A DNA stretch of 64,000 nucleotides from a candidate division FCPU426 bacterium (GTDB lineage Bacteria > Oederibacteriota > PGYV01 > Palsa-1178): positions 64,001-128,000 of the forward strand of contig CAWIXE010000001.1 in NCBI GenBank assembly GCA_963840035.1. Reading direction: 5' to 3'. The position numbers were made by a program, and so were the translations under genes. Shown here piece after piece: positions 1,240 to 27,614 of the stretch (its first letter is position 1; every line of letters starts with the position of its first letter). The notes under the pieces were generated by a model. That model was not told where the DNA came from and did not search any database. It saw only the letters and a program-made list of their open reading frames with translations.

Positions 1240-3027
1240 TTATACGGTGAATTTGTCCGTGGCGTTCTTTAAGGTTTCCGCCGTGCCTGAGAGCGTCTCT
1301 GCCGCGGCGTGGAGTTCTTCCATGGCTGAGGACTGTTCCTGTGACGATGCGGCTGCTTCCTGGGAAGAGGCCGCTATCTGCTGCGATGACGCGGCGATCG
1401 ATTCCACCTGTGAGGCCACGTCATTGACGCTTACCACTATTTCCGCGAAAAGCCCGTGCGCCTCTTTTGAAATTTCCGCGCTTTCCGTAATGGCAGCCGA
1501 GCTTTCCTGTGATATTTCCACGGCAGATATGATGTCATTCCTGACTTCTTTTATCCTGACCCTGATCTTCTTAGCCTGTTCTGTGGATAAATCCGAGAGT
1601 TTCCTTATCTCTTCTGCCACCACTACAAACCCGCGGCCGGACTCGCCGGCGCGCGCCGCTTCAATGGCCGCGTTAAATGAGAGCAGTTTTGTTTCATCAG
1701 CCACAGATTCTATGACCGCGACCATGTTCTGTATCTCCTGTGAATGGCCGCCGAGCACATCCATTTGTTTGCTCGACCTGGCGTAAGAATCGGTAAGATT
1801 ATTCATTTTTTCCATAAGCTGGTCCATCCTGTCAGCGCCGTTCTGGGCGGCTTTCTCCGCCCTAACGCTCGCGGCCGATGCCGCCTGTGAATTTTTCGCG
1901 GCCTCTGAAGTAGCCTGTGATATGGACCCGACTGTTTCCGCCAGCTGGGATATGGTATTCTGGCTCTGCTCCGATATGGCCGCAAGCTCCTTTGAAGAGG
2001 ACGCGATATACCCGGCTTCCATCTGTATCCTTTTTATTAGTTCGCGCAGATTCACCAGCATTGACTCGCTTGCCTTTCCAAGCACGTCGTTATCCGACTT
2101 TGCAGTGAACTGGGCGGAAAGGTCCCCTGAAGCTATTTTCTCGGATATGCCGGCTATCGCGTTAAGGTATTCTATCATACCGGAAAAAGCCCTTCCTATG
2201 GCGTCCCGGCCGGACCTTATTTCTATCTTTTCCCCGATAACGCCCCCGGAAATTTTTTCCGATATAACGGCTATCTTATCCATATAAGCGGCCAAATGGC
2301 TGAAATTCCTGGATAGTTTCTCAACCTCATCCCCCGATTCCACAATGGCTACTTTGCTCCATGTCTCGCCGCTGCTTAATTTTTCGGATATATCCGCTAT
2401 CTTATTGACCGGCCTTATCATGCTTAAATAAAGGAACCCGAATATCATCAGCGCGATGGCCGCGGTTCCGGCTATTCCCAAAAAGACTGAATTCCTGGCG
2501 GTTTTTCCCATGTCCAGGTTCAGGGTTGTCTTGTCAAAAGCCACCGCAATTGATCCGGCATTTTTGTTTTTATAGGCAATCGGCAGCGAAATCTCATAAG
2601 AATCCCTGCCATATCCTTTTACCTGTGAAATGTTGTAACCAAGCATTTCATTTTTCATCTTCACGGTATCCGGCATCGCAAAATCAGTCCTCCCTTCGGA
2701 GTTGTACTTCGCGATTACTTTCCCTTTCAGGTATACAGCCGCGTAAAGCATGTCTTCCCTGGTAACCGCGGCCTCCAGTATGAATGTCAGCTGCCTTATG
2801 TCGGCTTCTTTTAAACCGCCATTGTTTTTTTCAAAATTTGCCCTCACGACAGGCCCGGCCATATACACGCAGAATTCGCCAAGCGACACGACTTTTTCGG
2901 CAAACTTCTGCCCCACTATCCTGCTGTAGTTTGACATGTTGTAATAAGTTATGCCCCACGCCAGTAAAACAGCGCCAATAAAAACGATAAGCGCCGCTTT
3001 AAGCCCGAAAGCCATTTTTAACCGCAT
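1240..3027 (-). CDS. Methyl-accepting chemotaxis protein (2 TM, HAMP domains, MCP signalling domain)
   Basis: [30 protein letters not shown] hairpin signature; start moved to ATG 3027 behind GGGAG. Confidence 0.93.
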   Translation of the reverse strand: MRLKMAFGLKAALIVFIGAVLLAWGITYYNMSNYSRIVGQKFAEKVVSLGEFCVYMAGPVVRANFEKNNGGLKEADIRQLTFILEAAVTREDMLYAAVYLKGKVIAKYNSEGRTDFAMPDTVKMKNEMLGYNISQVKGYGRDSYEISLPIAYKNKNAGSIAVAFDKTTLNLDMGKTARNSVFLGIAGTAAIALMIFGFLYLSMIRPVNKIADISEKLSSGETWSKVAIVESGDEVEKLSRNFSHLAAYMDKIAVISEKISGGVIGEKIEIRSGRDAIGRAFSGMIEYLNAIAGISEKIASGDLSAQFTAKSDNDVLGKASESMLVNLRELIKRIQMEAGYIASSSKELAAISEQSQNTISQLAETVGSISQATSEAAKNSQAASAASVRAEKAAQNGADRMDQLMEKMNNLTDSYARSSKQMDVLGGHSQEIQNMVAVIESVADETKLLSFNAAIEAARAGESGRGFVVVAEEIRKLSDLSTEQAKKIRVRIKEVRNDIISAVEISQESSAAITESAEISKEAHGLFAEIVVSVNDVASQVESIAASSQQIAASSQEAAASSQEQSSAMEELHAAAETLSGTAETLKNATDKFTV

Positions 3028-3050
3028 TCTCCGCTCTCCCGTCACATTTA

Positions 3051-4211
3051 CTATTTATTTTTAGTTCCCGAATATAAACCGGTAACCACCCATGAAGCGG
3101 CATTTATAATGCCGGATTTTTTCTTCCTTACGCCGCGCGCCGCTTCCTTCGCCAGATTTGAGGACCTCTCAAAAAATTCAGGCAGGTTTATCCACGCCAT
3201 GGCTGTTATTTCGGATATCCTTCCGGCCCCTATAAACTTCAGGGGTTTTAACAACCTTCTTAAACCCTCTGCCATCGCCTCACGCGGCAGCAGAGCCGCC
3301 AGCATGGATGAGATGCCGGTCAGGATCAGCACGCGTGACGCGAAAAAACCGCCTTCAGCCATCCCAAAATCTGTTATTGTAACAGGCCCGGCCTGAAAGA
3401 CCGGGTTGCCTCCGCCGTTAAAAACAGCGGGTATAAACACTGAAAACAGCGCCAGATACTTCGCCCTCCATACAGAGATAACAACTTTCTCAAGTTTCCC
3501 TGACGCGGCCGCAATCCCGGCGATGAAAGCCGCGGATACCGCGAGGAACACAAACCTTCCGGCCAGAAGGACCGCGGCTGAGAACACTGCCGCGAATAAT
3601 ATCATGAACACGGCTCTTGCGGCAAGCCTGCCGGGCACCCGCACATGATGCCCGGTTTTAAATCCGGTTGTCCCGGCGCCGCCCCGGGCGGCTATGGCCG
3701 CGCACGCGTCAGAGGCTATAACCCCGTTTAAAAACCCTGACAGCGCGCCCGTTATGGCGAGCAGCGGCATAATCCACAAAACCGCATCGTTCCTTATTAA
3801 AATAAAATATACTATGGCTACCTGCGCCGCGTTATGAGCCACCCCGCCTGCTATTGATATCCCGGCGAGCGAAATAGGCGGCTTTTTCATCGTCTTAAGC
3901 GGAAAATAAAAAGCCGCCATGACAAGCGTGCTGGTAATTGAGGCGCCAAGGCTAAGAATAAAACCGGGCGACATTAATGTGCCGAGCATAAGCGACGCCA
4001 GCAGGCATCTCAGCACAGCCACTTCCATCGCACCCTTAAATCCCAGCTCCACCATGGCTATCATCGTAAAAATATTCGCCAGTCCCAGCTTGATTCCCGG
4101 TACCGGAAGCCTGGGAAGGAAAGATTCAGCAGCCTGGAGTACTGTGGCGCATGTCACAAGCAGGGCTGTTTTTTCCGTTTCCCGTCCGGCCTGGGGCTGC
4201 ATCAGGTTCAA
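3051..4211 (-). CDS. Gx transporter family (EetB-like ECF S component) fused to an EcfT/CbiQ-like domain, copy 1
   Basis: ESFLPRLPVPGIKLGLAN and GGVAHNAAQ Gx motifs; C-terminal half hydrophobic with EGLRRLLKPLK...ARG EcfT-like segment. Confidence 0.8.
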   Translation of the reverse strand: MNLMQPQAGRETEKTALLVTCATVLQAAESFLPRLPVPGIKLGLANIFTMIAMVELGFKGAMEVAVLRCLLASLMLGTLMSPGFILSLGASITSTLVMAAFYFPLKTMKKPPISLAGISIAGGVAHNAAQVAIVYFILIRNDAVLWIMPLLAITGALSGFLNGVIASDACAAIAARGGAGTTGFKTGHHVRVPGRLAARAVFMILFAAVFSAAVLLAGRFVFLAVSAAFIAGIAAASGKLEKVVISVWRAKYLALFSVFIPAVFNGGGNPVFQAGPVTITDFGMAEGGFFASRVLILTGISSMLAALLPREAMAEGLRRLLKPLKFIGAGRISEITAMAWINLPEFFERSSNLAKEAARGVRKKKSGIINAASWVVTGLYSGTKNK

Positions 4212-4582
4212 TATGAAAGAGCGTCAAATCCCGGTTTCTCCCCCGGGGATTCTATTTCTATGAGCACTTTATTGGGCACGCAGACTATTGATTCCCCCGG
4301 GCGGCATATGGCCGCCGCATGCGAGCATATCTGCCTGGGACAATCCGATTTTTTCACGCTTATCCGGCCGTTCTTTGATTCTATGACCATTTTTCCGGTA
4401 TCAACAACAGAATCCTTTTTCATGTCAAGTTCGCCGGTTTTTACGCCCCCTGTATATATGACGGCTTTCCCGGAAGAACCGGAACTTTTTACCATGACAA
4501 AACCCGCGGATATGATAACTACGCTGATTAGCAGGATTATATCCGCGGTTTTTATGATGTACATAGCATCCCTGTTTATCAT
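4208..4582 (-). CDS. NusG domain II-containing (Lin0431/EetA-like) exported protein, copy 1
   Basis: SDCPRQIC...ESIVCVPNKVLIEI motif; N-terminal TM; 4-bp overlap with the Gx gene. Confidence 0.85.
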   Translation of the reverse strand: MINRDAMYIIKTADIILLISVVIISAGFVMVKSSGSSGKAVIYTGGVKTGELDMKKDSVVDTGKMVIESKNGRISVKKSDCPRQICSHAAAICRPGESIVCVPNKVLIEIESPGEKPGFDALSY

Positions 4583-4684: not shown

Positions 4685-6532
4685 CTAAAGTATAAATTTA
4701 TCAGTGGCTGATTTTAGCGTATTTGCGGTATCGGCAAACTCTGAAACTACGGCGTTTAATTCCTCCATGGATGACGACTGTTCCTGTGACGAGGCTGAAG
4801 CTTCCTGTGAGGACGCCGCGATCTGCTGTGAGGACGCGGCTATTGATTCCATCTGCGCCGCGGTCTCATCTACGGATTTTACTATATCGATGAAAAGCAT
4901 ATTTGTCTCTTTGGCAAGCTCTTCGCCCGCCCTTATTCCTTCATATTCCCTGTTTACAATCTCTATGGCTTCAGCTATATCTTTCAATACCGCCTTTATC
5001 CTCTCGGCTATTTTCACCGCCTGCTCATTGCTCATGTCTGAAAGTTTCCTTATCTCTTCGGCTACGACCACAAAACCCCTTCCCGCCTCACCGGCGCGCG
5101 CGGCTTCAATAGCGGCGTTAAACGAAAGCAGCCTGGTCTCGTCAGCCACGGATTTTATAACCGCGGTCATGTTCTTTATCTCCTCGGAATGCTTCCCGAG
5201 CTTATTCATAGACTGCGTGGACAGCCCTATTTCAGAACTTAACTCCGTCATTTTTTCCAGCAGCATATTCATGCGCTCCGTGCCTTTTTTTGCGGAATTT
5301 TCAGCCTTAATACTGGCATGCGATGCTGTCTGCGAGTTCTTAGCCGCTTCGGATGTGGCGTTGGATATGTTTGAAATGGTCTCTGCCAGCTGCCCTATGG
5401 TAGCCTTGGACTGCTCGGAAATGTTCATCATCTGTTTTGAGGAATCGGCAAGAAAGTTGGACTGGTCCTGTATGCTTGAAACAAGGGTTTTAAGAGAAGC
5501 TGTCATGTCGGCGCAGGCATTGCCAAGCATGTCTTTGTCGGATTTTGCCATGAAACTTGTCGTAAGGTCTCCTTTTGCCACTTTGCCGAGGAACGAAGAA
5601 ATTTCATTGATGTACTTTAACATCTTTATGAAGGAAATTCCGAGCGTGTCCTTGTCGGATTTCGGCTCAAAGGCGTCCACAACCTCGCCGGAGGATACAT
5701 TTTCCGATACCCATGCAATAAAGTTTATATACTCCGACATCTCATGAAAACTCTTCGTTAAAACGCCTATCTCGTCATTGCTTTTTATTACCTCTATATT
5801 TTCGCTGATATCGCCGGTGGCTATCCTGGCTGATATTCTTGACAACTTTTTAATGGGCCTTATCATGTTAAAAAATATAAATAACACGATCAATACGCCG
5901 ATTACTGTCGCGTTCAGCGAGGTAAAAATAAAGGCGGACTGCGTGCCGCTGTTTATCTGTTTTGTAATGCTTTTCATATCAAAGCCAAGGATAAGCTGCC
6001 CGACTTCGTTGCCCATAAGCAGGAGTTCGTCCCCGCCCTTTAATTCTATGGGAATGGTTATTTCATAGCTGCTTTCACCCTTGCCTAATACGGAATACAG
6101 CGGGTATGATGTGAACTTTTTGTCCGTCTTCGTTTTTTCGGGAAGTTTCGCGTTCCCGGAAACAAATGCCGAACTTATTACCGCGTTGTTCTGCTTTATA
6201 GCAGCGTATATGATGTCTTTCCTGGATACGGCCGCCTGGAGGACCTCGTTTATCCTCTGCTTTATCCTGCGTTCCGGGTTTATTTTAAGCTTTGCTTTCT
6301 GGGACGCTGACATATTCTGCAGGTTCTGCAGCTCCAGCATGGATTGGCTTACGAGCGAAGCCGTATTCTCGCCCAGGGTTATAATCCTCTCCTGGAATTC
6401 CTTCATCACGATTTTTTTATAGATATAAGCGTCATATGTAGACCCGGCCAGGCTTATGAGGACCATGGTGGCAAGGACCATAAAGGAAATTTTAAAGCCC
6501 AGTGACATCGCTGCATTTTTTCCTTTTGCCAA
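4685..6532 (-). CDS. Methyl-accepting chemotaxis protein, paralogue of 1240..3027
   Basis: [33 protein letters not shown] start with GAGGTG RBS. Confidence 0.93.
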
Positions 6533-7988: not shown

Positions 7989-8438
7989 TTATACAAGTTC
8001 GTATGAGTTCTTACCCGTCTTTTTCATCATGTATTTCTGCCTTAAAAGGAGTTTCGCGAGCGTGTATGAGTCCAGATAATCCATCATAGCAGCCCTTAAT
8101 CCTTCCCACATTTCCCTTGTGGCGCAGGTGTTTGCGTTCGGGCATTCGGAATTTTCAGGAACGCAGCACAACGGCAGGACATCGCCCTCAGCCGTCTGTA
8201 TGACGTCTCCCATCTTGATCTTTTTCGGGTCCATGGCCAGGACAAACCCGCCGCTTTTGCCTTTTGTGCTCTGCACAAAACCGGAATTAATGAAAAGCCT
8301 CATTATGTTTTCCAGGTATTTCACGGATATTTTCTGCGTTATTGAAATCCTTTTCAGGGACACAGGGCCTTTTCCATATTGCGTGGCAAGGCAAAGCAGC
8401 GCTCTGATAGCATATCTTCCTCTTGTTGATATTTTCAT
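7989..8438 (-). CDS. Rrf2 family transcriptional regulator (Cys-containing)
   Basis: STRGRYAIRAL, YLENI, KGKSGGF, C-terminal Cys cluster; ATG 8438 with GGAGG. Confidence 0.92.
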   Translation of the reverse strand: MKISTRGRYAIRALLCLATQYGKGPVSLKRISITQKISVKYLENIMRLFINSGFVQSTKGKSGGFVLAMDPKKIKMGDVIQTAEGDVLPLCCVPENSECPNANTCATREMWEGLRAAMMDYLDSYTLAKLLLRQKYMMKKTGKNSYELV

Positions 8439-8532
8439 AATTTTCCTCCATGAAGCATGATATTTTGATGTGAATATTATCACAATGTATTATAAACAAA
8501 TTGACATTAAAAAGATAGGATTTTTATTTTAA

Positions 8533-8964
8533 TTACCGACTTTTGGTCGACACAATGCCGATTTCTCCGCTTATTAACTGCTGAAGATTTACTGAAGAAA
8601 GGTAATTTTGAACCGCGTCATGATAGCCCTTCCACGCGCTTAAAGCCTGACAGGTTTGATATTTTGGGCAGTCTCCCTGGTTATCGAGGCATGGCACAGG
8701 GGATATGGTGCCTTCCGTTATTTTCAATATTTCTTCCATGGTTATCTTTGATGGTTCCCTGGATAGTATGAATCCGCCTTTGTTTCCTTTGGAACTTATT
8801 ACAAGCCCTATCGCCGAAAACATCCTCATGATGTTTTCCAGGTACTTCTCTGATATGCCTTCGTTTTTAGCTATAGTTCCTATGGTAAGAGGCCCATGCC
8901 CAAAATGCAGGGCAAGTTCTATCATTGCCCTTAATGCGTACCTGCCTCTTGTTGATACCTTCAT
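8533..8964 (-). CDS. Rrf2 family transcriptional regulator (3 Cys)
   Basis: STRGRYALRAM, YLENI, KGNKGGF, C-x6-C-x5-C; ATG 8964 with GGAGG. Confidence 0.92.
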   Translation of the reverse strand: MKVSTRGRYALRAMIELALHFGHGPLTIGTIAKNEGISEKYLENIMRMFSAIGLVISSKGNKGGFILSREPSKITMEEILKITEGTISPVPCLDNQGDCPKYQTCQALSAWKGYHDAVQNYLSSVNLQQLISGEIGIVSTKSR

Positions 8965-9070
8965 TTGATCCTCCAATATAATCATAAAACCCGGGGCTTA
9001 TGGGGCGGCTTTTCAGGGCCGCCCCTATATGCCGTTAATACCCCCGTACTTCATTGCCTTTTAGGCCCGC

Positions 9071-9604
9071 TTACTTTTTAGCTTTTACAGCCGTGAACGC
9101 GTCATATATTATGAGCGCCCTTTTAGCCGCTATAACCACTGCTTTTGAGGAAATTGTAGCGCCTGTTATCGCCCTGACATCTTTGCCTATCTCTATCGTG
9201 TCTGCCGATGACTTGCCCGCGAACTGCTTTACAAAATTAGCCTGTTTGATGCCTGCCCCGCGTTTTTCCGACATTGATATATATCCTATGGAAAGGATCT
9301 TCTTTGTCGCAGCGTCAATGAGTATGCCCATCTTAATCGGGCCCCATTTTCCCATCTGCTCCTCAATTACAACCGCGCCTGTCTTTGATGTATAAATCTC
9401 ATACTCCGTCCTTACCGGCATCTTATTCGCCAGCCCCGCCTGCACCGCCGCTGTCAGGTCGGCGCTTACAGCGAAAACCTGCGCCTTAAGGTCTGAATCC
9501 GGAAGTAGTTCTTTTACCACATTAGTCTTCATGTCTTCCGCCATGACTGAAACCGCCAGCAGCATCACCGCCGCCATTACCGCTACCGCAAATAACTTTT
9601 TCAT
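9071..9604 (-). CDS. Periplasmic FMN-binding protein, copy 1
   Basis: Signal peptide; GKWGPI, E-x-RG, F-x-x-QF-x-GK, ITGATISS flavinylation motif (9146..9169). Confidence 0.88.
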   Translation of the reverse strand: MKKLFAVAVMAAVMLLAVSVMAEDMKTNVVKELLPDSDLKAQVFAVSADLTAAVQAGLANKMPVRTEYEIYTSKTGAVVIEEQMGKWGPIKMGILIDAATKKILSIGYISMSEKRGAGIKQANFVKQFAGKSSADTIEIGKDVRAITGATISSKAVVIAAKRALIIYDAFTAVKAKK

Positions 9605-9712: not shown

Positions 9713-10819
9713 TTAGAATGTTACCCTCACGCCAAGCGACGGCCTCGTGTAGACGAGCGTCGATGTGCCTGAGTTGTTCCTGATATCCACTACGTCGGTT
9801 GCGAACTGCAGGTATGTCGCGTCAGCAAGCGATATTACAGCGCCCGCCGTTGTCTGAACGCCCATGACAGGCATTGCCGTTGTTTTCGTGAAGTTGTCAT
9901 ATTTCCAGTCATGCGCGGCAAAAAGCTTGAGCCACGGCAGCACTTTATACATTGCCTTCACATAATATGTGTCTGAAATTCCGTCCTGTGATGCCGAGAT
10001 AAGCTGTTCCTGTTTTCCCGCGGCGTACTCCGACCTGATGGAAAAATCGCCGATTGAATACATGAACCCGGCTGACCACTTGGTGTTTGCAAGCTTTTCC
10101 TTGGCGCCAGTCCTTGCCGAGTATATCGAGCCAAGAACCGTAAGGCCGTTCCATACCGGCTCAACGTGCAGCATGACTCCCGGCTCGTTGTTTATGTCAA
10201 AAGCTCCGTCCTCTGTTCCGCCGTTAACGACGTACGCGTATACAGGAAGAGTCACATCGCCGATGGAAAATGCCTTGCTTACTTCGATACCGCTGTCATG
10301 CACCGCTCCAATGCCGAGGGCAAATAGGCCTCCGTTAAACTGCTCTTCCCAGAAAAGTTCGTGTCCGTACTCTGCCGTAAACTTAGGGTGTACCTGTCCG
10401 ACTTCCATTGTAACGTCATAAGGAAGGTCGAATATTACCACTGCTTTGCCGTGTCCGAAATCTTTGAACACATAAGCGGAACCTGCTGTAGCTGTCTGCG
10501 TAACCCCGAACTTCGGCGTCGCGCCTGTGCTGCAGGAAAATTTCGGGTCTACTTCAAAGCTTATCCAGTTATTGATTTTTCCCGAGATGAAAAGGTCCAG
10601 TTCCTTAAAGCCAAAACCGTAAGATTTTTCTATAGCTGTCTGAGTGCCGTTATTCCTTACGATTGATGACGGGCGGTCAAACAGCGTCATCTTTATGTGC
10701 CCGCCTACCGATACCGACGGCCCTTCCCCTGTTGCTGCCGCTTCTTCGGCAAATGAAAACACCGCGAAGCCAAGCGCAAGAACCGTTACAACTGCCACCG
10801 CAAAAAATTTCCTGAACAT
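9713..10819 (-). CDS. Outer-membrane beta-barrel (porin-like), copy 1
   Basis: Signal peptide, alternating amphipathic strands, C-terminal LGVRVTF. Confidence 0.8.
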   Translation of the reverse strand: MFRKFFAVAVVTVLALGFAVFSFAEEAAATGEGPSVSVGGHIKMTLFDRPSSIVRNNGTQTAIEKSYGFGFKELDLFISGKINNWISFEVDPKFSCSTGATPKFGVTQTATAGSAYVFKDFGHGKAVVIFDLPYDVTMEVGQVHPKFTAEYGHELFWEEQFNGGLFALGIGAVHDSGIEVSKAFSIGDVTLPVYAYVVNGGTEDGAFDINNEPGVMLHVEPVWNGLTVLGSIYSARTGAKEKLANTKWSAGFMYSIGDFSIRSEYAAGKQEQLISASQDGISDTYYVKAMYKVLPWLKLFAAHDWKYDNFTKTTAMPVMGVQTTAGAVISLADATYLQFATDVVDIRNNSGTSTLVYTRPSLGVRVTF

Positions 10820-10871
10820 GCTGTCCTCCTTGAGTTTTTTCAGGCCGGGTTTAAAGCCCGCCTTTTTTTTG

Positions 10872-11387
10872 TTATGCCTGTACTGTTTTTTCCTTATACA
10901 GCCACATTTCGTATAACGGCACTACGAGCATAATTAGCAGCGAAATACCCAGCAGCATACCCGAGAGCACCATGAATATTGACATCCACGCCGCCACATA
11001 CCTGATTAGCCAGAAAGACGCGTTCGCGATTAAAACCGCGATAAAGCCGTCAACAAGCGCGAATTTTTTTAGCCACTTCGGCACTGACCTTGCGAACATG
11101 AAGATTAAGCCTATTGTGAATGTCATAAGCGTCATCCCGAAGAAATGCGTATGGGTGTGCTGCATGAGGTACGCGGCGTCCGGTGGCTCAATCATTTTAG
11201 CCTCGTTGCCCCTGTAGTGGTCCGCGATTGAATCCGGGTTAAACCCTTCCGTTAAAGCCACCGTGCCTACCGCCGTCAAATAAGCCATACCCATACAGAT
11301 AATAAACAGGGTCAAAAACAGCTTGATGGTCAGCGATAATTTGCTTAAGTTCACCATCTTTTCAATTTCCTGCACTTCGTTTTCCAT
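10872..11387 (-). CDS. His-rich inner-membrane protein, copy 1
   Basis: About four hydrophobic helices; DHYRG and QHTHTHFFGM motifs conserved with 14972..15484. Confidence 0.75.
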   Translation of the reverse strand: MENEVQEIEKMVNLSKLSLTIKLFLTLFIICMGMAYLTAVGTVALTEGFNPDSIADHYRGNEAKMIEPPDAAYLMQHTHTHFFGMTLMTFTIGLIFMFARSVPKWLKKFALVDGFIAVLIANASFWLIRYVAAWMSIFMVLSGMLLGISLLIMLVVPLYEMWLYKEKTVQA

Positions 11388-11414
11388 AAACCCGCCTCCT
11401 TTGTAATGTATATT

Positions 11415-12611
11415 TTATATTGAGACTTCCGCGCTGGTGTAAAGCGCCGCAATTACCGCCGTAAAGTAGGCGATCGCGCTTTTTAAATCCCGCTTTTTCT
11501 CGTTTTTAAAACTTTTTACAAGACCCGCGGCCCTGTCCCAAAAAAGCGGCACAGCGGCCCATGACCTGACTATGATATGCGAGGTCCTGCTGCCGTTTAT
11601 CCCGGCGAACTTAAATGGCCTTAAAAATCCTTCTATTGATTTAAGCAGCCCTTCGGGCGCCGTTGTCTTTATCATCAGGTCGGCCGTAATCATGAGAAGG
11701 ACCATTCTGAATACAAACATCGCTCCCATACTAAGGCCTGTTTCGGTTATACTAACGGGCCCTGCAGCGTATAACACCGCTCCTCCGTGGTTAAAAAACA
11801 GCGGCATAAAGAATGAAAACATCAGAAACCATTTCATCCTTGCAACCCCTGTGAAAATCGCCTTAAAACTTATTCCGGCTGCCATTGCCGTGATCAGTAT
11901 TGCGGCGAGCATGGCCAGGAATAATTCCCTGCTGGAAAAAAATATTATTGCCGCAGCTGCCGCCGCGGTTATAATTATTTTCATTGACGGGTCTGCCGCG
12001 TGAAGAAAAGACTTTCCATTTATATATCCGCGCCACGGCGCGGATGCAGCCTGTTTTTCGCCCGTGAATCCCATGGCCTTCTCATTAGCGCTGCCGGGCA
12101 GAGCGATCTTCGCGCATACTCCGGACGCCACAAGGCCTGTTATCCATCCCGTAACCACCGAACTTATACCCAGCCAGGGCGCGAGCATTAAAACACCCGG
12201 GCTTCTTATAAAGAACGCGTAAATCACCGCCAGCTGGGTCATGTTATGCGCCACAGCGCCAAGCAGGCTGATTCCTATGAGGCTTAAGGCGGGTTTTTTA
12301 AAGTTTTTAAGTATGGAATACACGGCGCCCATGACAACGCTGCTGGCTAATGCCGATGTGAAGCTTAATATAAAGGAAGTGGAAAGGAAAGTTCCGAGTA
12401 AAAGCGAGCTTATTAGCGACCTTAACACGGCTATTTCCACAGCCGCTCCAAACCCCAGGTCCACAAGAGCGACTAAAGTAATCATGTTTGCAAGGCCGAG
12501 TTTTATGCCGGGTATGGGCTGCGGTAAAAAGGATTCCGCCATCTGGAGGATGGAGGCTATCGTGACAAGGAGCGCTGTTTTCTCTGTTTTTACGTCGGGT
12601 TTAAAATTCAT
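11415..12611 (-). CDS. Gx transporter family (EetB-like) fused to an EcfT/CbiQ-like domain, copy 2
   Basis: PIPGIKLGLAN, GAVAHNMTQL; SFLHAADPSMKI is a typical EcfT N-terminus; TTAPEGL...FLRPF. Confidence 0.82.
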   Translation of the reverse strand: MNFKPDVKTEKTALLVTIASILQMAESFLPQPIPGIKLGLANMITLVALVDLGFGAAVEIAVLRSLISSLLLGTFLSTSFILSFTSALASSVVMGAVYSILKNFKKPALSLIGISLLGAVAHNMTQLAVIYAFFIRSPGVLMLAPWLGISSVVTGWITGLVASGVCAKIALPGSANEKAMGFTGEKQAASAPWRGYINGKSFLHAADPSMKIIITAAAAAAIIFFSSRELFLAMLAAILITAMAAGISFKAIFTGVARMKWFLMFSFFMPLFFNHGGAVLYAAGPVSITETGLSMGAMFVFRMVLLMITADLMIKTTAPEGLLKSIEGFLRPFKFAGINGSRTSHIIVRSWAAVPLFWDRAAGLVKSFKNEKKRDLKSAIAYFTAVIAALYTSAEVSI

Positions 12612-12619
12612 ATGCCGCC

Positions 12620-12994
12620 TCAGTAACTGACAGTATCAAACTGTGTGGAATTATTTCTTGGTATTTCTATTATTACCCTGTTTGGCAGGCATACCAGCGA
12701 CTGCCCCGGCTGGGAAATCCATCCGCCATGGCTGCAGATCTTCCTCGGACAGTCCGACTTTAACACCCTTACACTGCCATCTTTGACCTCAATTTCCATG
12801 CCGTTTATAACGGTGATTGAATCTTTTTGAAGGCTGATCTCATGTTTATCGTCATTATTTTTTGTTATTTCGGCCACCTCTGAGCGCTGGCCTGGCAGAA
12901 GCGTTGAAAACAGGGGCGCTGAAAATAACACAAGTATAAGCATGGCCGCGGCGTAATCCATCGGCCTGGCGGAATAAAACCTTGTTTTATCCAT
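12620..12994 (-). CDS. NusG domain II-containing (EetA-like) exported protein, copy 2
   Basis: SDCPRKIC..GWISQPGQSLVCLPNRVIIEI. Confidence 0.87.
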   Translation of the reverse strand: MDKTRFYSARPMDYAAAMLILVLFSAPLFSTLLPGQRSEVAEITKNNDDKHEISLQKDSITVINGMEIEVKDGSVRVLKSDCPRKICSHGGWISQPGQSLVCLPNRVIIEIPRNNSTQFDTVSY

Positions 12995-13027
12995 TTCAAT
13001 CGCCTCCCTGCATTCTAATTGCTACTA

Positions 13028-13074
13028 ATACTATCTCTTTAGTAGTATTATAGCAGGCGGTTAATAAATGTCAA
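13028..13074 (-). promoter_or_regulatory. Sigma70 promoter with overlapping candidate Rrf2 operator
   Basis: TTGACA-N16-TATAAT with TG extension; operator-like ATACTATCTCTTTAGTAGTAT at 13028..13048. Confidence 0.65.
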
Positions 13075-13240
13075 GTATGATTTTTCACAAGCGGGGGTCT
13101 TCCGGACGGATATTTTCGCCTCAACATTCATGTGCGCGCTTTTATTCACATGACGCGGGCGGCGGTTGCCGCATTATATGATTACAAATAAAAAACCGGC
13201 GGCTTTTCAGCCGCCGGCATTATGTCTTTACATGCAGGCG

Positions 13241-13756
13241 CTATTTTTTTTCAGCAAACGCGCCGTATATGACCAGCGCCCTTTTTGCGGCTATTGCCAC
13301 AGCTTTTGACGAAATGGTGGCGCCTGTTATCGCCCTGATGTCCTTGCCTGTCTCGATGCTGTCAGCCGCTGATTTTCCGGCAAACTGCTTGATAAAATTA
13401 GGCTGCTTGATGCCCGCGCCGCGCTTTTCCGACATTGAGATAAACCCTATGTCCCTGATCTTTTTTGTCGCGGGGTCGATGGATATTGCCATCTTGATGG
13501 GACCCCATTTTCCCTTCTGCTCCTCTATGACCACGGCGCCGGTCTTTGAGGAGTATATTTCATACTTCTTACTTACGGGCATTTTGTTATTCAGCGCGGC
13601 CTGCACCCTTGCGGTTACCGCGTCTGTGACTTCAAAGGCCACGGCTTTCAGGTCTGTATCAGGCAGCAGACCCTTGACCACGGTCTCTTTCATGTCCGCG
13701 GCAATGACACCCGCTGCAACCGATAACATAAGCATCAAAAACAATATTTTCTTCAT
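13241..13756 (-). CDS. Periplasmic FMN-binding protein, copy 2
   Basis: Close paralogue of 9071..9604; ITGATISS motif. Confidence 0.88.
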   Translation of the reverse strand: MKKILFLMLMLSVAAGVIAADMKETVVKGLLPDTDLKAVAFEVTDAVTARVQAALNNKMPVSKKYEIYSSKTGAVVIEEQKGKWGPIKMAISIDPATKKIRDIGFISMSEKRGAGIKQPNFIKQFAGKSAADSIETGKDIRAITGATISSKAVAIAAKRALVIYGAFAEKK

Positions 13757-13789
13757 TCACTTCCTCCTTAACATATTGGTCTTTTCTTA

Positions 13790-14887
13790 TTAAAAAGTCA
13801 TCCTTACGGCGAGGGTGGGCCTTACGAATTGAAGGCCGTCCGCCCCGTTATTCTGCATCCAGTCGGCGCAGTCCACCTGAAGCATTACATATGTGCTGTC
13901 CGAAAGGTTCATGTCCAGGACCGCGGTATTTGTTATGTACTTTTCCCCTCCCAGGTTTGCGGTATAGAAAAACCCGTTAAAATTATGCGCGGCCACGTTA
14001 TAATTGTAAACAAGCTTCAGCCACGGCATGAATTTATACGCGGCCTTAATATAGTAGCCGTATGTTGCCGCGTCCTTTCCGGCGCCCATTTTGTTTTCCC
14101 ACCTGCCGTTTGCAATCTCCGCGCGCAGCTGCAGGGCTTCCCAGTTGAACTGGATTCCTCCTGAAGCCCTCTGATACGCATTGTGCCTGCCCGTGTCGTA
14201 CGTCCCCACAGTATAAGACCCCATGACTTTGAACATCCCCATGGCCGGTTCGGTATGTATCATCACCGCGGGCTGCCTGTTGTTGTCATAAGTGTCCTCC
14301 GCGCCGTATCCGTTCATGGCATATAGCCAGACAGGGATGGCCGCATCACCTACAGCAAAGGATTTATATATTTCTATGCCTGTATCCGCCATTTCCCCCA
14401 GCCAGGGATTGGCGGCAAATTTTGATCCGTTGAATTCCTCATCCCAGAATAGCTCCTGCCCGTATTCCACTGTAAAGAGCGGCTTTAAAAGCCCTGCCGA
14501 TATCTCCACCTCCATCGGGGCGGTATATTTTATCAGCGCCTTGTTAAATCCTCCAAACGCCGCCGATTCCGATGAAAGATTATCGCCGATGTTGCTTCCA
14601 AACTTCGGGGTGGCTCCCGTGCTTGCCCTGAATGACGGCTCCACCTCGACAGACAGTACGTCGGATAATGTCTGTGAAATATACAGTATTACCTCGCCAA
14701 AGCTGAATCCGGTAAATTCAGTCGAGCCGTATTTCACGCCGCCCGCCGCCGTCCTTACCCCGTCTGCCGCGTCAAATAAAGTCATTTTTATGTGTCCGCC
14801 TACAGTGGTTCCTGTGTCGGCGCAAAACGACGCGGGCGCAAATGCCATTACAAAAACAGCTGCAAATAACAACATTTTCTTTTTCAT
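13790..14887 (-). CDS. Outer-membrane beta-barrel (porin-like), copy 2
   Basis: Signal peptide; VGGHIKMTLFD, STGATPKFG, EYGxELFWxExFNG shared with copy 1; C-terminal LAVRMTF. Confidence 0.8.
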   Translation of the reverse strand: MKKKMLLFAAVFVMAFAPASFCADTGTTVGGHIKMTLFDAADGVRTAAGGVKYGSTEFTGFSFGEVILYISQTLSDVLSVEVEPSFRASTGATPKFGSNIGDNLSSESAAFGGFNKALIKYTAPMEVEISAGLLKPLFTVEYGQELFWDEEFNGSKFAANPWLGEMADTGIEIYKSFAVGDAAIPVWLYAMNGYGAEDTYDNNRQPAVMIHTEPAMGMFKVMGSYTVGTYDTGRHNAYQRASGGIQFNWEALQLRAEIANGRWENKMGAGKDAATYGYYIKAAYKFMPWLKLVYNYNVAAHNFNGFFYTANLGGEKYITNTAVLDMNLSDSTYVMLQVDCADWMQNNGADGLQFVRPTLAVRMTF

Positions 14888-14971: not shown

Positions 14972-15484
14972 TTACTTAACGGCTTTTTCTTTATAAAGCC
15001 ACATTTCATATAAAGGCACTAGAAGCATGACAGCCAATGAAATACCAAGTAAAATCCCGGACAGGACCATGAGCACCGCCATCCACGAAGCCACATACCT
15101 TATCAGCCAGAACGAGGACGTCGCGATTAACACAGCCACAAAACCGTCGACAAGCGCGAACTTTTTCAGCCATGCGGGTATGGACCTGGCAAACATGAAG
15201 ATAAGCCCTATGGAAAAGACCATAAGGGACATGCCGAACATATGCGTGTGGGTATGCTGCATCAGATACGCGTTATCAGGCGGTTCAATCATTTTTGCCT
15301 CGTTACCCCTGTAATGGTCGGCTATGCTTTCGATGGAAAAACCTTCTGACAACGCCACAGTCCCGACAGCTGACAAATACGCGAACCCCATGCAGATAAG
15401 GAACATGGTAAAAAAATACTTCAGTACTGGCGGAAGCTTGCTTAAGTTTAAAAGTGACAAAAACCCTTCTCTTTCATTTTCCAT
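14972..15484 (-). CDS. His-rich inner-membrane protein, copy 2
   Basis: Paralogue of 10872..11387; QHTHTHMFGM. Confidence 0.75.
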   Translation of the reverse strand: MENEREGFLSLLNLSKLPPVLKYFFTMFLICMGFAYLSAVGTVALSEGFSIESIADHYRGNEAKMIEPPDNAYLMQHTHTHMFGMSLMVFSIGLIFMFARSIPAWLKKFALVDGFVAVLIATSSFWLIRYVASWMAVLMVLSGILLGISLAVMLLVPLYEMWLYKEKAVK

Positions 15485-24481: not shown

Positions 24482-24886
24482 TTATCCCTCTTGGGCTTTG
24501 GGCCCTGGGATTTGGGCTTTCTTTGCCCTGTAATCCTCTATCGCCTTCTTAATCCCGTCTTCCGCCAGGACAGAGCAGTGGTGCTTTTCCTTCGGAAGTC
24601 CTCCCAAAAGGTCGACTATCCTTTTATTGGAGACTTCAAGCGCCTCTTCCACTGTCTTGCCGATTACCAGTTCCGTGGCAAGAGAGGATGTGGCAATCGC
24701 GGCCACGCACCCGAACGTTTCAAACTTGCAGTCTGTTATGATGTTGTTCTCCACTTTTATATATATCCACATGACATCCCCGCATACCGGGTTGCCTACT
24801 TTTCCTATTCCGGAGGCATTTTCTATCCTGCCGTTATTTGTCATGTCTTTGAACTGCTTTATCACTTTTTCGCTATACTGTTGCAT
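24482..24886 (-). CDS. iscU: Fe-S cluster scaffold IscU/NifU-N
   Basis: GNPVCGD, FGCVAAIA, KHHCS; ATG 24886 with GGAGG. Confidence 0.92.
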   Translation of the reverse strand: MQQYSEKVIKQFKDMTNNGRIENASGIGKVGNPVCGDVMWIYIKVENNIITDCKFETFGCVAAIATSSLATELVIGKTVEEALEVSNKRIVDLLGGLPKEKHHCSVLAEDGIKKAIEDYRAKKAQIPGPKAQEG

Positions 24887-24987
24887 GGGAGAACCTCCAG
24901 TATGTTGTGCTATGTGATGTGTGCTAAGTGGTATGTGGAAGGGCAGATCCTTCACTTAGCACATATCACGCGCCACTTATCACGCCT

Positions 24988-25896
24988 TTACAGGCTTAGC
25001 ATCTTCTCTATAGGCTTAATCGCCTTTTTCATTATCTCATCGGAAAGTTTTATCTCGTACTGTTCCTTTGTTATGGAGTCGTAAACGTCCTGGATCCTTG
25101 TTTTTTTCATGTTCGGGCATATTTTAGCGTTGCCCAGGGAGAAAAATTCCGCGTCCGGCCTTTCCTTTTTCAGCCTGTGTATGTGCCCCTCTTCGGTCCC
25201 CACTATGAACTTCTTATCAGGGCTTTCCTTTACGTATTTTATCATCGCGGCCGTGGATGCCACAAAATCCGCGAGCTCCAGCACCGACATGTCAGCTTCC
25301 GGGTGCGCCATAACTTTCGCGTCCGGGTGCGCCCTTCTGGTTTTTATTACCTCTTCCTTTGTAAAGCGCTGGTGCACATTGCATCCGCCTTCATGCAGTA
25401 TTATGTCCTTTTCAGGCACGTGTTTTTTTACCCACGCCCCCAGGTTTGAATCCGGAAGGAAAACCACCTGTTTTGTCGGCGCTTTCCTTACCATATCCAC
25501 GGCGTTTGCCGATGTGCAGCATATGTCCAGTGTCGACTTTACTTCCGCGCTGGTGTTTACATAACCCACTATGGTGGCGTCAGGATATTTTTCCCTGTAT
25601 GCCAGCGCTTCTTCCATCGTGATGCAGTCAGCCAGAGGGCATCCCGCGTCCCTCCTTGGTATCAGGACTTTTTTTCCGGGCGAAAGTATCTTCGCCGTCT
25701 CGGCCATAAAAAGCACTCCGCAAAAAATTATTATTTTTTCCTTTGCCGCGGCCGCTTTCCTGGAAAGTTCAAGCGAGTCCCCTGTAAAATCCGCCAGGTC
25801 CTGGACCTGCGGTATCTGGTAATTGTGGGCGATTATGAGGGCGTCTTTTTCCACTTTCAGTTTCTTTATTTCTTCGATCATCTGCGTTTCATTCAT
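24988..25896 (-). CDS. nadA: Quinolinate synthase
   Basis: AHNYQ, GDSL, FCGVLFMAE, AGCPLA, YVNT, CNVH, AHPE, CPNMK. Confidence 0.96.
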   Translation of the reverse strand: MNETQMIEEIKKLKVEKDALIIAHNYQIPQVQDLADFTGDSLELSRKAAAAKEKIIIFCGVLFMAETAKILSPGKKVLIPRRDAGCPLADCITMEEALAYREKYPDATIVGYVNTSAEVKSTLDICCTSANAVDMVRKAPTKQVVFLPDSNLGAWVKKHVPEKDIILHEGGCNVHQRFTKEEVIKTRRAHPDAKVMAHPEADMSVLELADFVASTAAMIKYVKESPDKKFIVGTEEGHIHRLKKERPDAEFFSLGNAKICPNMKKTRIQDVYDSITKEQYEIKLSDEIMKKAIKPIEKMLSL

Positions 25897-25993
25897 GTGA
25901 ACTCCTTTTATTTATTACGTGCTATGTGATATGTGGTAAGCGATATGTGCATTGCCTTACCTTGCCACTTATCACATAACACATATCACTTTT

Positions 25994-27172
25994 CTATTTT
26001 TTCCGTTCATTCCACATCGGCGACATTTTGCGCAGTTTTTCCACGGCTGGAGGCAGCACTTCAAATACTTTATCCACATCTTCGTCGGTGGAATACTTTG
26101 AAAATGAGAACCTGATGGACCCGTGCGCTGTTTCATGGGGCAGCCCGAGGGCTAAAAGCACATGCGACGGGTCAAGAGAGCCTGACGCGCATGCCGAGCC
26201 TGACGATACGCAGATGCCTTCGAAGTCCATGTGTATGAGCATTGCCTCGCCCTCTATATACTTTACACAAATATTGAGGGTGTTGTCCACCCTTTTTTCA
26301 GGATGTCCGTTCATTATTATCTCGGGAATCCTCTCAAAGAGCCCTTTTTCAAGCCTGTCGCGGAGCCCCTTAATGCGCGCCATGTCATTTTTATCATTTA
26401 AATGTTCCCCGGCGATGGTACATGCCTTTGCCATGCCTATTATGCCGGCAACATTCTCAGTACCGGAGCGCTTTGAGCTTTCCTGGTGTCCGCCCTGGGT
26501 GATGGAGTGTATGCGCACGCCTTTTTTCAGGTAAAATATCCCCACGCCTTTGGGGCCGTGGAATTTATGCGCCGAAAGAGAAAGCATGTCTATGTTCATT
26601 TTTTTGACGTCAATTGCCACCTTGCCCGGGACCTGAACCGCGTCAGTGTGGAAGTAAACCTTTGCTTCCCTTGCGATTGCTCCTATCTCCGCCACCGGCT
26701 CTATGGTGCCTATTTCATTATTGGCGAACATTATGGAAATAAGGACCGTGTCCTTCCTTATCGCGTTTTTCAGCTCCTGTAAATCTATCAGGCCGTATTT
26801 ATCCACGCCCAGATAAGTGACTTCCCAGCCGTGTTTCTCCATGTATTTGCAGGTCTCAAGTATGGCCGGATGCTCTATCTTTGAGGTAATGATGTGCTTT
26901 CCTTTATCAGTGTTGGCATATGCTATGCCTTTAATGGCCATGTTATCGGATTCCGTTCCGCCGGATGTGAATATGATCTCCTTCGGGTCGGCATTCAGAA
27001 ATTTCGCCGCTTCCTCGCGCGCGGCCTCCACGTCTTTCCTTATCTCCTGCGCGGCTGAATATACGCCGGAGGCGTTAAAATACTTTTCCGTAAAATAAGG
27101 CTCCATGGCCTTTAACACTTCAGGGTCTGTTTTTGTGGTCGCGTTGTTGTCCAGGTAATATAATTTTGCCAT
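25994..27172 (-). CDS. iscS: Cysteine desulfurase IscS/NifS
   Basis: YLDNNATT, FTSGGTE, HTDAVQ, SAHKFHGPKG, SSGSACAS. Confidence 0.95.
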   Translation of the reverse strand: MAKLYYLDNNATTKTDPEVLKAMEPYFTEKYFNASGVYSAAQEIRKDVEAAREEAAKFLNADPKEIIFTSGGTESDNMAIKGIAYANTDKGKHIITSKIEHPAILETCKYMEKHGWEVTYLGVDKYGLIDLQELKNAIRKDTVLISIMFANNEIGTIEPVAEIGAIAREAKVYFHTDAVQVPGKVAIDVKKMNIDMLSLSAHKFHGPKGVGIFYLKKGVRIHSITQGGHQESSKRSGTENVAGIIGMAKACTIAGEHLNDKNDMARIKGLRDRLEKGLFERIPEIIMNGHPEKRVDNTLNICVKYIEGEAMLIHMDFEGICVSSGSACASGSLDPSHVLLALGLPHETAHGSIRFSFSKYSTDEDVDKVFEVLPPAVEKLRKMSPMWNERKK

Positions 27173-27182
27173 GTCCGTCTCC

Positions 27183-27614
27183 TCACTTTTTTCCCATTGC
27201 CATGTGGGTGTCAGATACCTCAAGCAGGGTTGTTTTCTGTAAAAATCCGTTCACGAGCTTATCAAGCCTTACCCATACGTTCCTGATGCCGCATTTTTTC
27301 GCGTTCCCGCAGTTGTCTATGTCAGCGGCGCATTTCGTGGATGAAGTGCCTTTTTCTACGGCATCAAGTATGTCAAAAACCGTTATTTCCTCAGGCTTTT
27401 TTTCCAGCTTAAAACCGCCTTTTTCGCCCTTTATTGACGCCACTAACCCGGCTTTCCTTAAATTAACGAATATGTTCTCAAGGTAGCGGTTGGATATATT
27501 CTCCTTAACCGATATTTCCTTGATTGATACCGGGGCGTTTCCCCTGGAGTTATATGATACTGCCAGGTGCGTTAAAGCCCTGAGTGCGTACCTTCCTTTT
27601 GTTGATATGTTCAT
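27183..27614 (-). CDS. Rrf2 family regulator (IscR-like) heading the isc operon
   Basis: STKGRYALRA, YLENI, three C-terminal Cys; adjacent to iscS. Confidence 0.9.
   Translation of the reverse strand: MNISTKGRYALRALTHLAVSYNSRGNAPVSIKEISVKENISNRYLENIFVNLRKAGLVASIKGEKGGFKLEKKPEEITVFDILDAVEKGTSSTKCAADIDNCGNAKKCGIRNVWVRLDKLVNGFLQKTTLLEVSDTHMAMGKK

Follow-up and report, generated by a model that had tools for sequence, protein, structure and literature searches.

Two porin genes on the minus strand of a 64,000-nt stretch of DNA from a candidate division FCPU426 bacterium (GCA_963840035.1, contig CAWIXE010000001.1, positions 64,001-128,000 of the forward strand; hereafter the window) encode paralogs, porin A and porin B, that likely represent a new porin clade carrying covalent flavin mononucleotide (FMN), as judged from sequences and structural models. 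The host is placed by GTDB in the lineage Oederibacteriota; PGYV01; Palsa-1178, and its genome is 98% complete. Each porin contains STGATPKFG, in which TGAT conforms to the strict [S/T]GA[S/T] pattern of substrates of the flavin transferase ApbE, and we consider it likely that a conserved loop Thr is flavinylated in both proteins. Much more tentatively, though still as the role that we favor, the bound FMN may serve as a surface electron relay, the outermost link of a heme-free chain across the envelope.

Both minus-strand copies of STGATPKFG named in an original prediction for this DNA were found, one in each porin. The two proteins are 36% identical, in line with their description there as substantially diverged, and the TGAT core that was said to be common to the porins and the FMN-binding neighbors recurs as ITGAT in both adjoining FMN_bind proteins. 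The window porins are of exported type, with an N-terminal signal peptide (identified by eye), a C-terminal Phe, and a barrel model. Family searches yielded 23 and 93 proteins, and 89 near full-length sequences were aligned, leaving out 23 short representatives and 4 already present. A92, T93, and P94 were kept in 85, 83, and 86 of these, compared with at most 44% at positions 102-109 of the same loop (L2), and it is this family-wide conservation that raises the motif above chance. Of the 89 proteins, 83 have Thr and 3 have Ser as the acceptor, 86 in all. We also pooled loci from genomes (33), metagenomes (34), and further genome searches, which gave 104 family open reading frames (ORFs) and 79 distinct rows, two interrupted or split genes being counted twice. 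Thr or Ser occupied the acceptor position in all 74 locus-derived ORFs that cover the loop. The genome scan contained the motif in one of its three search patterns and the metagenome scan in none; the latter nevertheless returned Thr or Ser in 32 of 32 covering ORFs, and ten further loci, some of them repeats, kept the acceptor in 10 of 10. Of the nine-residue motif that had been described as conserved, a core of x-[GS]-A-[TS]-P stood rather than the whole 9-mer. The upstream Asp of the extended motif is missing.

A quick tree of 67 family rows, with 9 distant rows as outgroup, placed the family in a single clade (Shimodaira-Hasegawa-like approximate likelihood ratio test, SH-aLRT, 100), within which Thr changed to Ser at the acceptor in two separate subclades. 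Family records are labelled Spirochaetia, Ca. Goldiibacteriota, Elusimicrobiota, Latescibacterota, KSB1, Omnitrophota, Fibrobacterota, Planctomycetota, Cloacimonadota, and Armatimonadota. One member (L087, 1237-2412) has a tandem duplication in L2 that presents the full textbook form, VDAVSSAT followed by VDATTGAT, and is the sole tandem among the 74 ORFs. The variant AGAT, found in some of the porins, is shared by FMN_bind proteins encoded in their operons, and GAT is invariant in 42 of 42 FMN_bind proteins. From these comparisons the motif is real and conserved, and probably functional, and both window porins fall within a single clade, so far undescribed, of porins predicted to have 16 strands.

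The AlphaFold model of mature porin B (pLDDT, the predicted score of the local distance difference test, 95; predicted template modeling score, pTM, 0.90) is a barrel, as had been proposed, and has 16 strands. It locates the acceptor Thr at the start of the 22-residue loop that follows strand 3, as the sixth residue. We assign this loop as L2 because of the short turns at model residues 51-54 and 101-103 and the long L3, and by usual porin topology it would lie on the outer (extracellular) face. The nearest folds of porin B are PorB, Omp32, OmpT, and OprP (TM-scores of 0.58-0.66, 10-15% identity), and weak sequence likeness to OprO was detected (E of 6e-5). Porin_O_P (PF07396) matched porin A with 25.9 bits (cut-off 20.9) on 67 residues and 22 of the 89 members; porin B gave no match. 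The predicted 16-strand barrel fold of the window porins is shared with OprO/OprP, PorB, and Omp32, but the family differs in its own 22-residue L2 with the motif and its own conserved L3 (Y142 and W148), and no title among its solved structural relatives mentions flavin.

A precedent for a flavinylated barrel is provided by DUF3570 (PF12094), whose motifs were shown to be flavinylated by ApbE (PMC8238504), in clusters with DsbD and thioredoxin, even though the protein ended in the insoluble pellet. The portions of that paper covered here never call DUF3570 a barrel or porin. Of 25 DUF3570 proteins collected, we folded one, a Fibrobacterota member and not the tested Chlorobium protein. Its model (pLDDT 82.6) has about 16 strands, its nearest folds are outer-membrane barrels, and both motifs lie in a poorly ordered loop after strand 3, the same placement as is predicted for the window family; this agrees with the precedent invoked by the original prediction. 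In a profile comparison, only strands 1-3 and the motif of DUF3570 aligned with the family, in register (probability 39.5, E of 3e-4). The two groups are otherwise distinct. PF12094 matched none of the 89 family members and neither window porin; DUF3570 has two motifs with an upstream Asp, whereas the family has one, mostly without Asp; and DUF3570 is partnered by DsbD, thioredoxin, and DUF4266, unlike the family, whose partners are FMN_bind, PF27139, and EetA/EetB-FmnA-like proteins. DsbD, thioredoxin-like, and DUF4266 neighbors were absent among the 21 window proteins scanned. Among the DUF3570 loci (L152-L176), those in Fibrobacterota have cytochrome-like, thioredoxin, and DsbD/CcdA-like genes next to DUF3570.

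The family is closely tied to flavinylation genes. In 30 of the 32 loci that extend 3 kb or more downstream, apbE lies within 6.5 kb, as the proposed link between the porins and apbE would have it, and an FMN_bind gene is nearby in all 32. In 99 genomes of the window's phylum (24 of its own order), a strong porin match was found in 18, and 17 of these 18 contain apbE compared with 41 of the 99 overall; the exception (G013) is an 80% complete genome whose contig ends inside the porin. Within the order, porin and apbE co-occur in the same 10 of 24 genomes. Because kin are not independent, these counts are descriptions rather than tests. The original proposal to check whether the motif is kept only beside apbE is informative in one direction only, because no family member was found in a complete genome lacking apbE, while most sister porins that adjoin FMN_bind genes lack the motif. 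The latter emerged from control sets. When 35 distant barrels (300 residues or longer) were compared, G218, with GGAT, was alone in having a motif at the same loop, and its cluster (L145:4264-11403) encodes Fur, the porin with GGAT at L2, FMN_bind, PepSY, ApbE, FeoB, and DtxR-FeoA. Of 31 relatives of the G218 barrel (the best 30 of 116 places plus G218 itself), 13 adjoin an FMN_bind gene and 12 of these 13 lack the motif. Adjacency to flavinylation genes alone therefore does not bring the motif, which is a trait of the present clade. This Fur-linked module resembles the window locus in its gene set around ApbE, but its porins form a different clade whose L2 is short and acidic and, in those 12 of 13, free of the motif, and its neighbors are Fur and FeoB, whereas the window locus has its own operator and Rrf2. 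Several Planctomycetota sister porins (L180, L188, L192-L196, L198, L199, and L205) adjoin what look like fusion genes, each a single ORF with matches to FMN_bind as well as ApbE. The apbE of another genome (G024) contains a stop, as does one porin gene described below.

The genes around the porins suggest how the flavin could be supplied. PF07456 corresponds to EetB, an FAD (flavin adenine dinucleotide)-binding subunit that, with the energy-coupling factor (ECF) component ECF-T FmnA, exports FAD for ApbE in Listeria (PMC9973259). The Listeria-type set of EetB (PF07456), ECF-T, ApbE, and FMN_bind is present in full in the window cluster, along with an EetA-like NusG_II protein (PF07009 corresponding to EetA). 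By established knowledge, the EetB-FmnA-like fusion would export FAD and ApbE would transfer FMN to x-G-A-T motifs in the periplasm. The porin would be modified there while still unfolded and then inserted, placing FMN on L2 at the outer mouth of the pore. Modification before insertion is plausible because a peptide of seven residues, even within a loop, is enough for ApbE, which tolerates the absence of the Asp with minor effects in one tested substrate (PMC12052999), and because DUF3570 is modified though insoluble. That each porin gene has a PF27139-protein gene before it and an FMN_bind gene after it points to a chain of three parts: electrons may pass from the inner membrane (PF27139 protein and quinone pool) to the FMN_bind protein, likely a soluble periplasmic carrier in the case of the one after porin B, then to the porin FMN, aided by a flexible loop or by a small mediator within the pore, and finally to an outside acceptor. 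Complex prediction for porin B and its FMN_bind protein scored 0.41 against 0.00 for the best control, which lends slight support. Of 157 solved pairs, 116 reached the mark used, as did 2 of 215 mismatched ones, with only 18 solved pairs and both mismatches at 0.60 or under; runs agreed in at least 2% of contacts, and partner pLDDT was at least 85. We also count in favor of flavinylation a third porin paralog far from apbE (42 kb) that keeps ITGAT and the operator.

A number of observations weigh against this account. The two-copy match of the 9-mer is weak on its own, because the 11-residue run VGGHIKMTLFD of strand 1 is also identical in both porins and [ST]GA[ST] is present in 111 of the 1798 long ORFs of the genome, shadow frames included. 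Only 46 of the 74 ORFs have strict [ST]GA[ST], the remaining ones having AGAT, ASAT, GGAT, TSAT, TSAS, AGAS, or SRAT, and in 3 of the 89 proteins the acceptor is Ala, Tyr, or Asn. An Asp placed six residues ahead of the acceptor (D-x-x-[S/T]-G-A-[S/T]) occurs in only 12 of 86, the residue being Arg in porin B and Ser in porin A; FMN_bind sites of the same operons, including those in the window, mostly lack it as well. Since the family is one clade, its conservation is one inherited event, and the sister porins beside FMN_bind indicate that such modules work without the motif. In one genome (G021, L011/L034) the porin is interrupted by an in-frame TAG three codons before the motif, reflecting a pseudogene or an assembly error. 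L2 is well ordered in the porin B model (pLDDT 91-94), and the site appears to face outward whereas ApbE acts in the periplasm. The PF27139 protein, the presumed entry point, has only one invariant His and is in view around 47 of the 79 loci, hence missing from about 40%. The main difficulty is that a single FMN on L2 would be separated from the periplasm by the width of the membrane, beyond the reach of direct tunneling, and bridging the membrane would require that a loop moves, that a partner enters the pore, or that a small mediator takes part. In four loci, PF27139 is replaced before the porin by another membrane protein, which bears His, has ~158 residues, and gives no Pfam match (L011:866-1342, L016:763-1239, L041:3855-4331, and L094:5833-6318).

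Several of these points are what one would expect if the porin were unmodified, in which case its motif would be an inherited structural turn of L2 (the loop that is the trimer latch of general porins) and the protein a plain channel for the substrate of a periplasmic flavoprotein. Single-clade descent, the longer strand 1 identity, the relaxed first positions (AGAT, ASAT, GGAT, or SRAT) and rare Asp, the motif-less sister modules, and the outer-face location all fit this explanation, which we judge unlikely in view of the exclusive use of Thr or Ser across the 74 ORFs, the tandem textbook motifs, the positional match to DUF3570, the AGAT sites of co-encoded FMN_bind proteins, and the leniency of ApbE toward loop peptides and loss of Asp (PMC12052999). 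A flavinylated porin could instead act in reductive nutrient uptake, FMN at the pore mouth reducing Fe(III) complexes or another oxidized nutrient whose product enters by the same pore, which would make the system a variant of the Fur-linked module; we regard this as somewhat less improbable. Many Rrf2 regulators sense iron or Fe-S, and Rrf2 genes are in view in 12 of the 79 loci. The one distant barrel with an L2 motif lies in the Fur, FMN_bind, PepSY, ApbE, and FeoB cluster described above, sister porins adjoin Fur or FeoB in L188 and L202, and a link to iron assimilation is described for PepSY-like ApbE clusters (PMC8238504). Against such a function, no Fur box was present upstream of any family gene tested (the best candidate had 5 mismatches of 19), feoB of the window genome is on another contig, and no iron transporter occurred among the ~36 family neighbors scanned. 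We consider it very improbable that flavin traffic uses the porin as its outer-membrane leg, at which free flavin shuttles from the EetB-FmnA-like transporter would be released or recaptured, with the motif only marking a flavin-handling site. An exporter-like gene is in view in 41 of the 79 loci, and FAD synthetase or lumazine synthase genes stand beside the porin in L037, L038, L040, L041, and L085, but the motif is a signal for covalent attachment rather than a known free-flavin site, and loss of eetB in Listeria left extracellular flavin levels unchanged, with targeted delivery to ApbE proposed (PMC9973259).

The wider surroundings helped to choose among these functions. Among 41 hand-picked genes scanned out of several hundred neighbors in relatives, we found polyprenyl synthetase, UbiA, FAD synthetase, lumazine synthase, HemA, Nqr/Rnf, Nuo, and NrfD with molybdopterin oxidoreductase. 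In two phyla (L148:9156-14701 and L149:2488-7059) the porin-FMN_bind operon runs into genes for a 4Fe-4S protein, NrfD, and molybdopterin oxidoreductase, with TatC. These respiratory and cofactor neighbors lead us to favor energy metabolism, tentatively as stated above, over iron uptake, then an unmodified channel, and lastly flavin traffic. In the 98% complete window genome, neither HemA nor RnfD/NqrB was found, and no real multiheme protein was present, the ORFs with at least two CxxCH motifs being low-complexity shadow frames. A group of multi-CxxCH ORFs (G000:C3:412315-424880) considered as cytochromes was rejected; these are Cys/Arg/Leu-rich shadow frames of a repetitive gene.

The Listeria flavin locus (FmnA, FmnB, PplA, EetA, EetB, Ndh2, DmkA, and DmkB) has EetB-like, ECF-T, ApbE, FMN_bind, and EetA-like components in common with the window, and quinone-synthesis genes lie beside the family cluster in several relatives, as they do in Listeria. 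Polyprenyl synthetase and UbiA adjoin the cluster only in some relatives and are elsewhere in the window genome; Ndh2 and DmkA/DmkB are absent from the window cluster. In contrast to Listeria, the window host has two membranes and a porin, its EetB and ECF-T are fused, a PF27139 protein is added, and its FMN_bind carrier looks soluble rather than lipid-anchored. The clade resembles DUF3570 in where its site is placed, and the Listeria locus in its supply genes, while being a member of neither. Known outer-membrane electron routes use multiheme cytochromes inside porins, as in MtrAB-type conduits, or soluble shuttles. The window system may resemble the MtrAB type in joining a barrel to a periplasmic redox partner, but it has no multiheme cytochrome, its host lacks HemA, and its barrel is much smaller and has an L3 loop.

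If the relay were real, a porin with its own covalent FMN would be a third outer-membrane electron route; surface redox activity would be predicted in lineages scored inactive for want of cytochromes, and a flavinylated chain could be folded into the outer membrane. On the model presented here, DUF3570, a proven ApbE substrate, would be recast as an outer-membrane barrel. It is possible, but doubtful, that the PF27139 protein, the soluble FMN carrier, and the flavinylated porin form a heme-free all-flavin wire across the whole envelope, a diderm counterpart of the Listeria pathway in uncultured anaerobes without multiheme cytochromes, with DUF3570 as a second such barrel and flavinylated barrels as a general unrecognized route of extracellular electron transfer. 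No report of a flavinylated porin or of this cluster was found in the literature covered, which leaves subscription journals largely outside. The words porin and barrel are absent from the portions of PMC8238504 and three small supplements, although its large tables may list such clusters, and from the excerpts of PMC12052999; those of PMC11334425 name the outer membrane once as a substrate location, with no barrel.

Along the minus strand, the cluster encodes a PF27139 protein, porin B, FMN_bind, NusG_II, the PF07456-CbiQ fusion, the second PF27139 protein, porin A, FMN_bind, two Rrf2 proteins, ApbE, a chemoreceptor, the second NusG_II and PF07456/CbiQ pair, and another chemoreceptor. The single apbE and the two FMN_bind genes of the genome all lie within it. 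The chemoreceptor neighbors are lineage-limited, being also found beside a family porin in L009/L151, L042, and L060.

Features of the flavinylation cluster, in window coordinates
Feature	Positions	Strand	Basis
Membrane protein with four helices preceding porin B, PF27139 (Aq_1264_TM), single invariant His79	14972..15484	-	Pfam, alignment
Porin B, 365 aa, predicted 16-strand barrel, signal peptide, C-terminal Phe	13790..14887	-	AlphaFold, fold search
STGATPKFG of porin B, residues 89-97; predicted FMN acceptor Thr93 (codon 14609-14611)	14597..14623	-	
FMN_bind protein directly after porin B, PF04205, ITGAT site, cleavable-looking signal peptide (by eye)	13241..13756	-	
Operator-like palindrome, 8-base arms, 9-base spacer, upstream of EetA-like gene	13026..13050	.	
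NusG_II protein (EetA-like)	12620..12994	-	Pfam
PF07456 + CbiQ fusion, EetB-like ECF-S + FmnA-like ECF-T, predicted FAD exporter	11415..12611	-	
Second PF27139 membrane protein, before porin A	10872..11387	-	
Porin A, 368 aa, porin B paralog	9713..10819	-	Porin_O_P, 25.9 bits over residues 237-303
STGATPKFG of porin A, residues 97-105; predicted acceptor Thr101 (codon 10517-10519)	10505..10531	-	
FMN_bind protein directly after porin A	9071..9604	-	PF04205
Two Rrf2 regulators	7989-8483, 8533-8985	-	Pfam
ApbE flavin transferase with lipobox; only apbE in genome	6882..7874	-	
Second NusG_II + PF07456/CbiQ pair	3051..4582	-	
Two chemoreceptors	1240-3045, 4685-6532	-	Pfam

The third porin paralog lies outside the window (G000:C1:28239-29333). 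Its operon (L004, G000:C1:28239-31444), downstream of an HdrA/DsrE cluster, consists of genes for DOMON, TPR, and DOMON lipoprotein products followed by the porin, and in the DOMON proteins His residues are retained whereas the usual heme Met is not. A porin beside DOMON was also seen in L013/L147 and L093. The only other near-perfect genome copy of the palindrome is at G000:C1:31482, before this operon, and the same site precedes the operon in L030, L031/L064, L067, and L092; it may be bound by the local Rrf2 proteins. Weaker copies (G000:C2:863297 and C2:711194) precede lipoprotein genes. Elsewhere in the window, 9 kb from the flavinylation cluster, Rrf2, IscS-like desulfurase, NadA, and NifU-like genes were recognized by eye in the ORF list (24482-27614).

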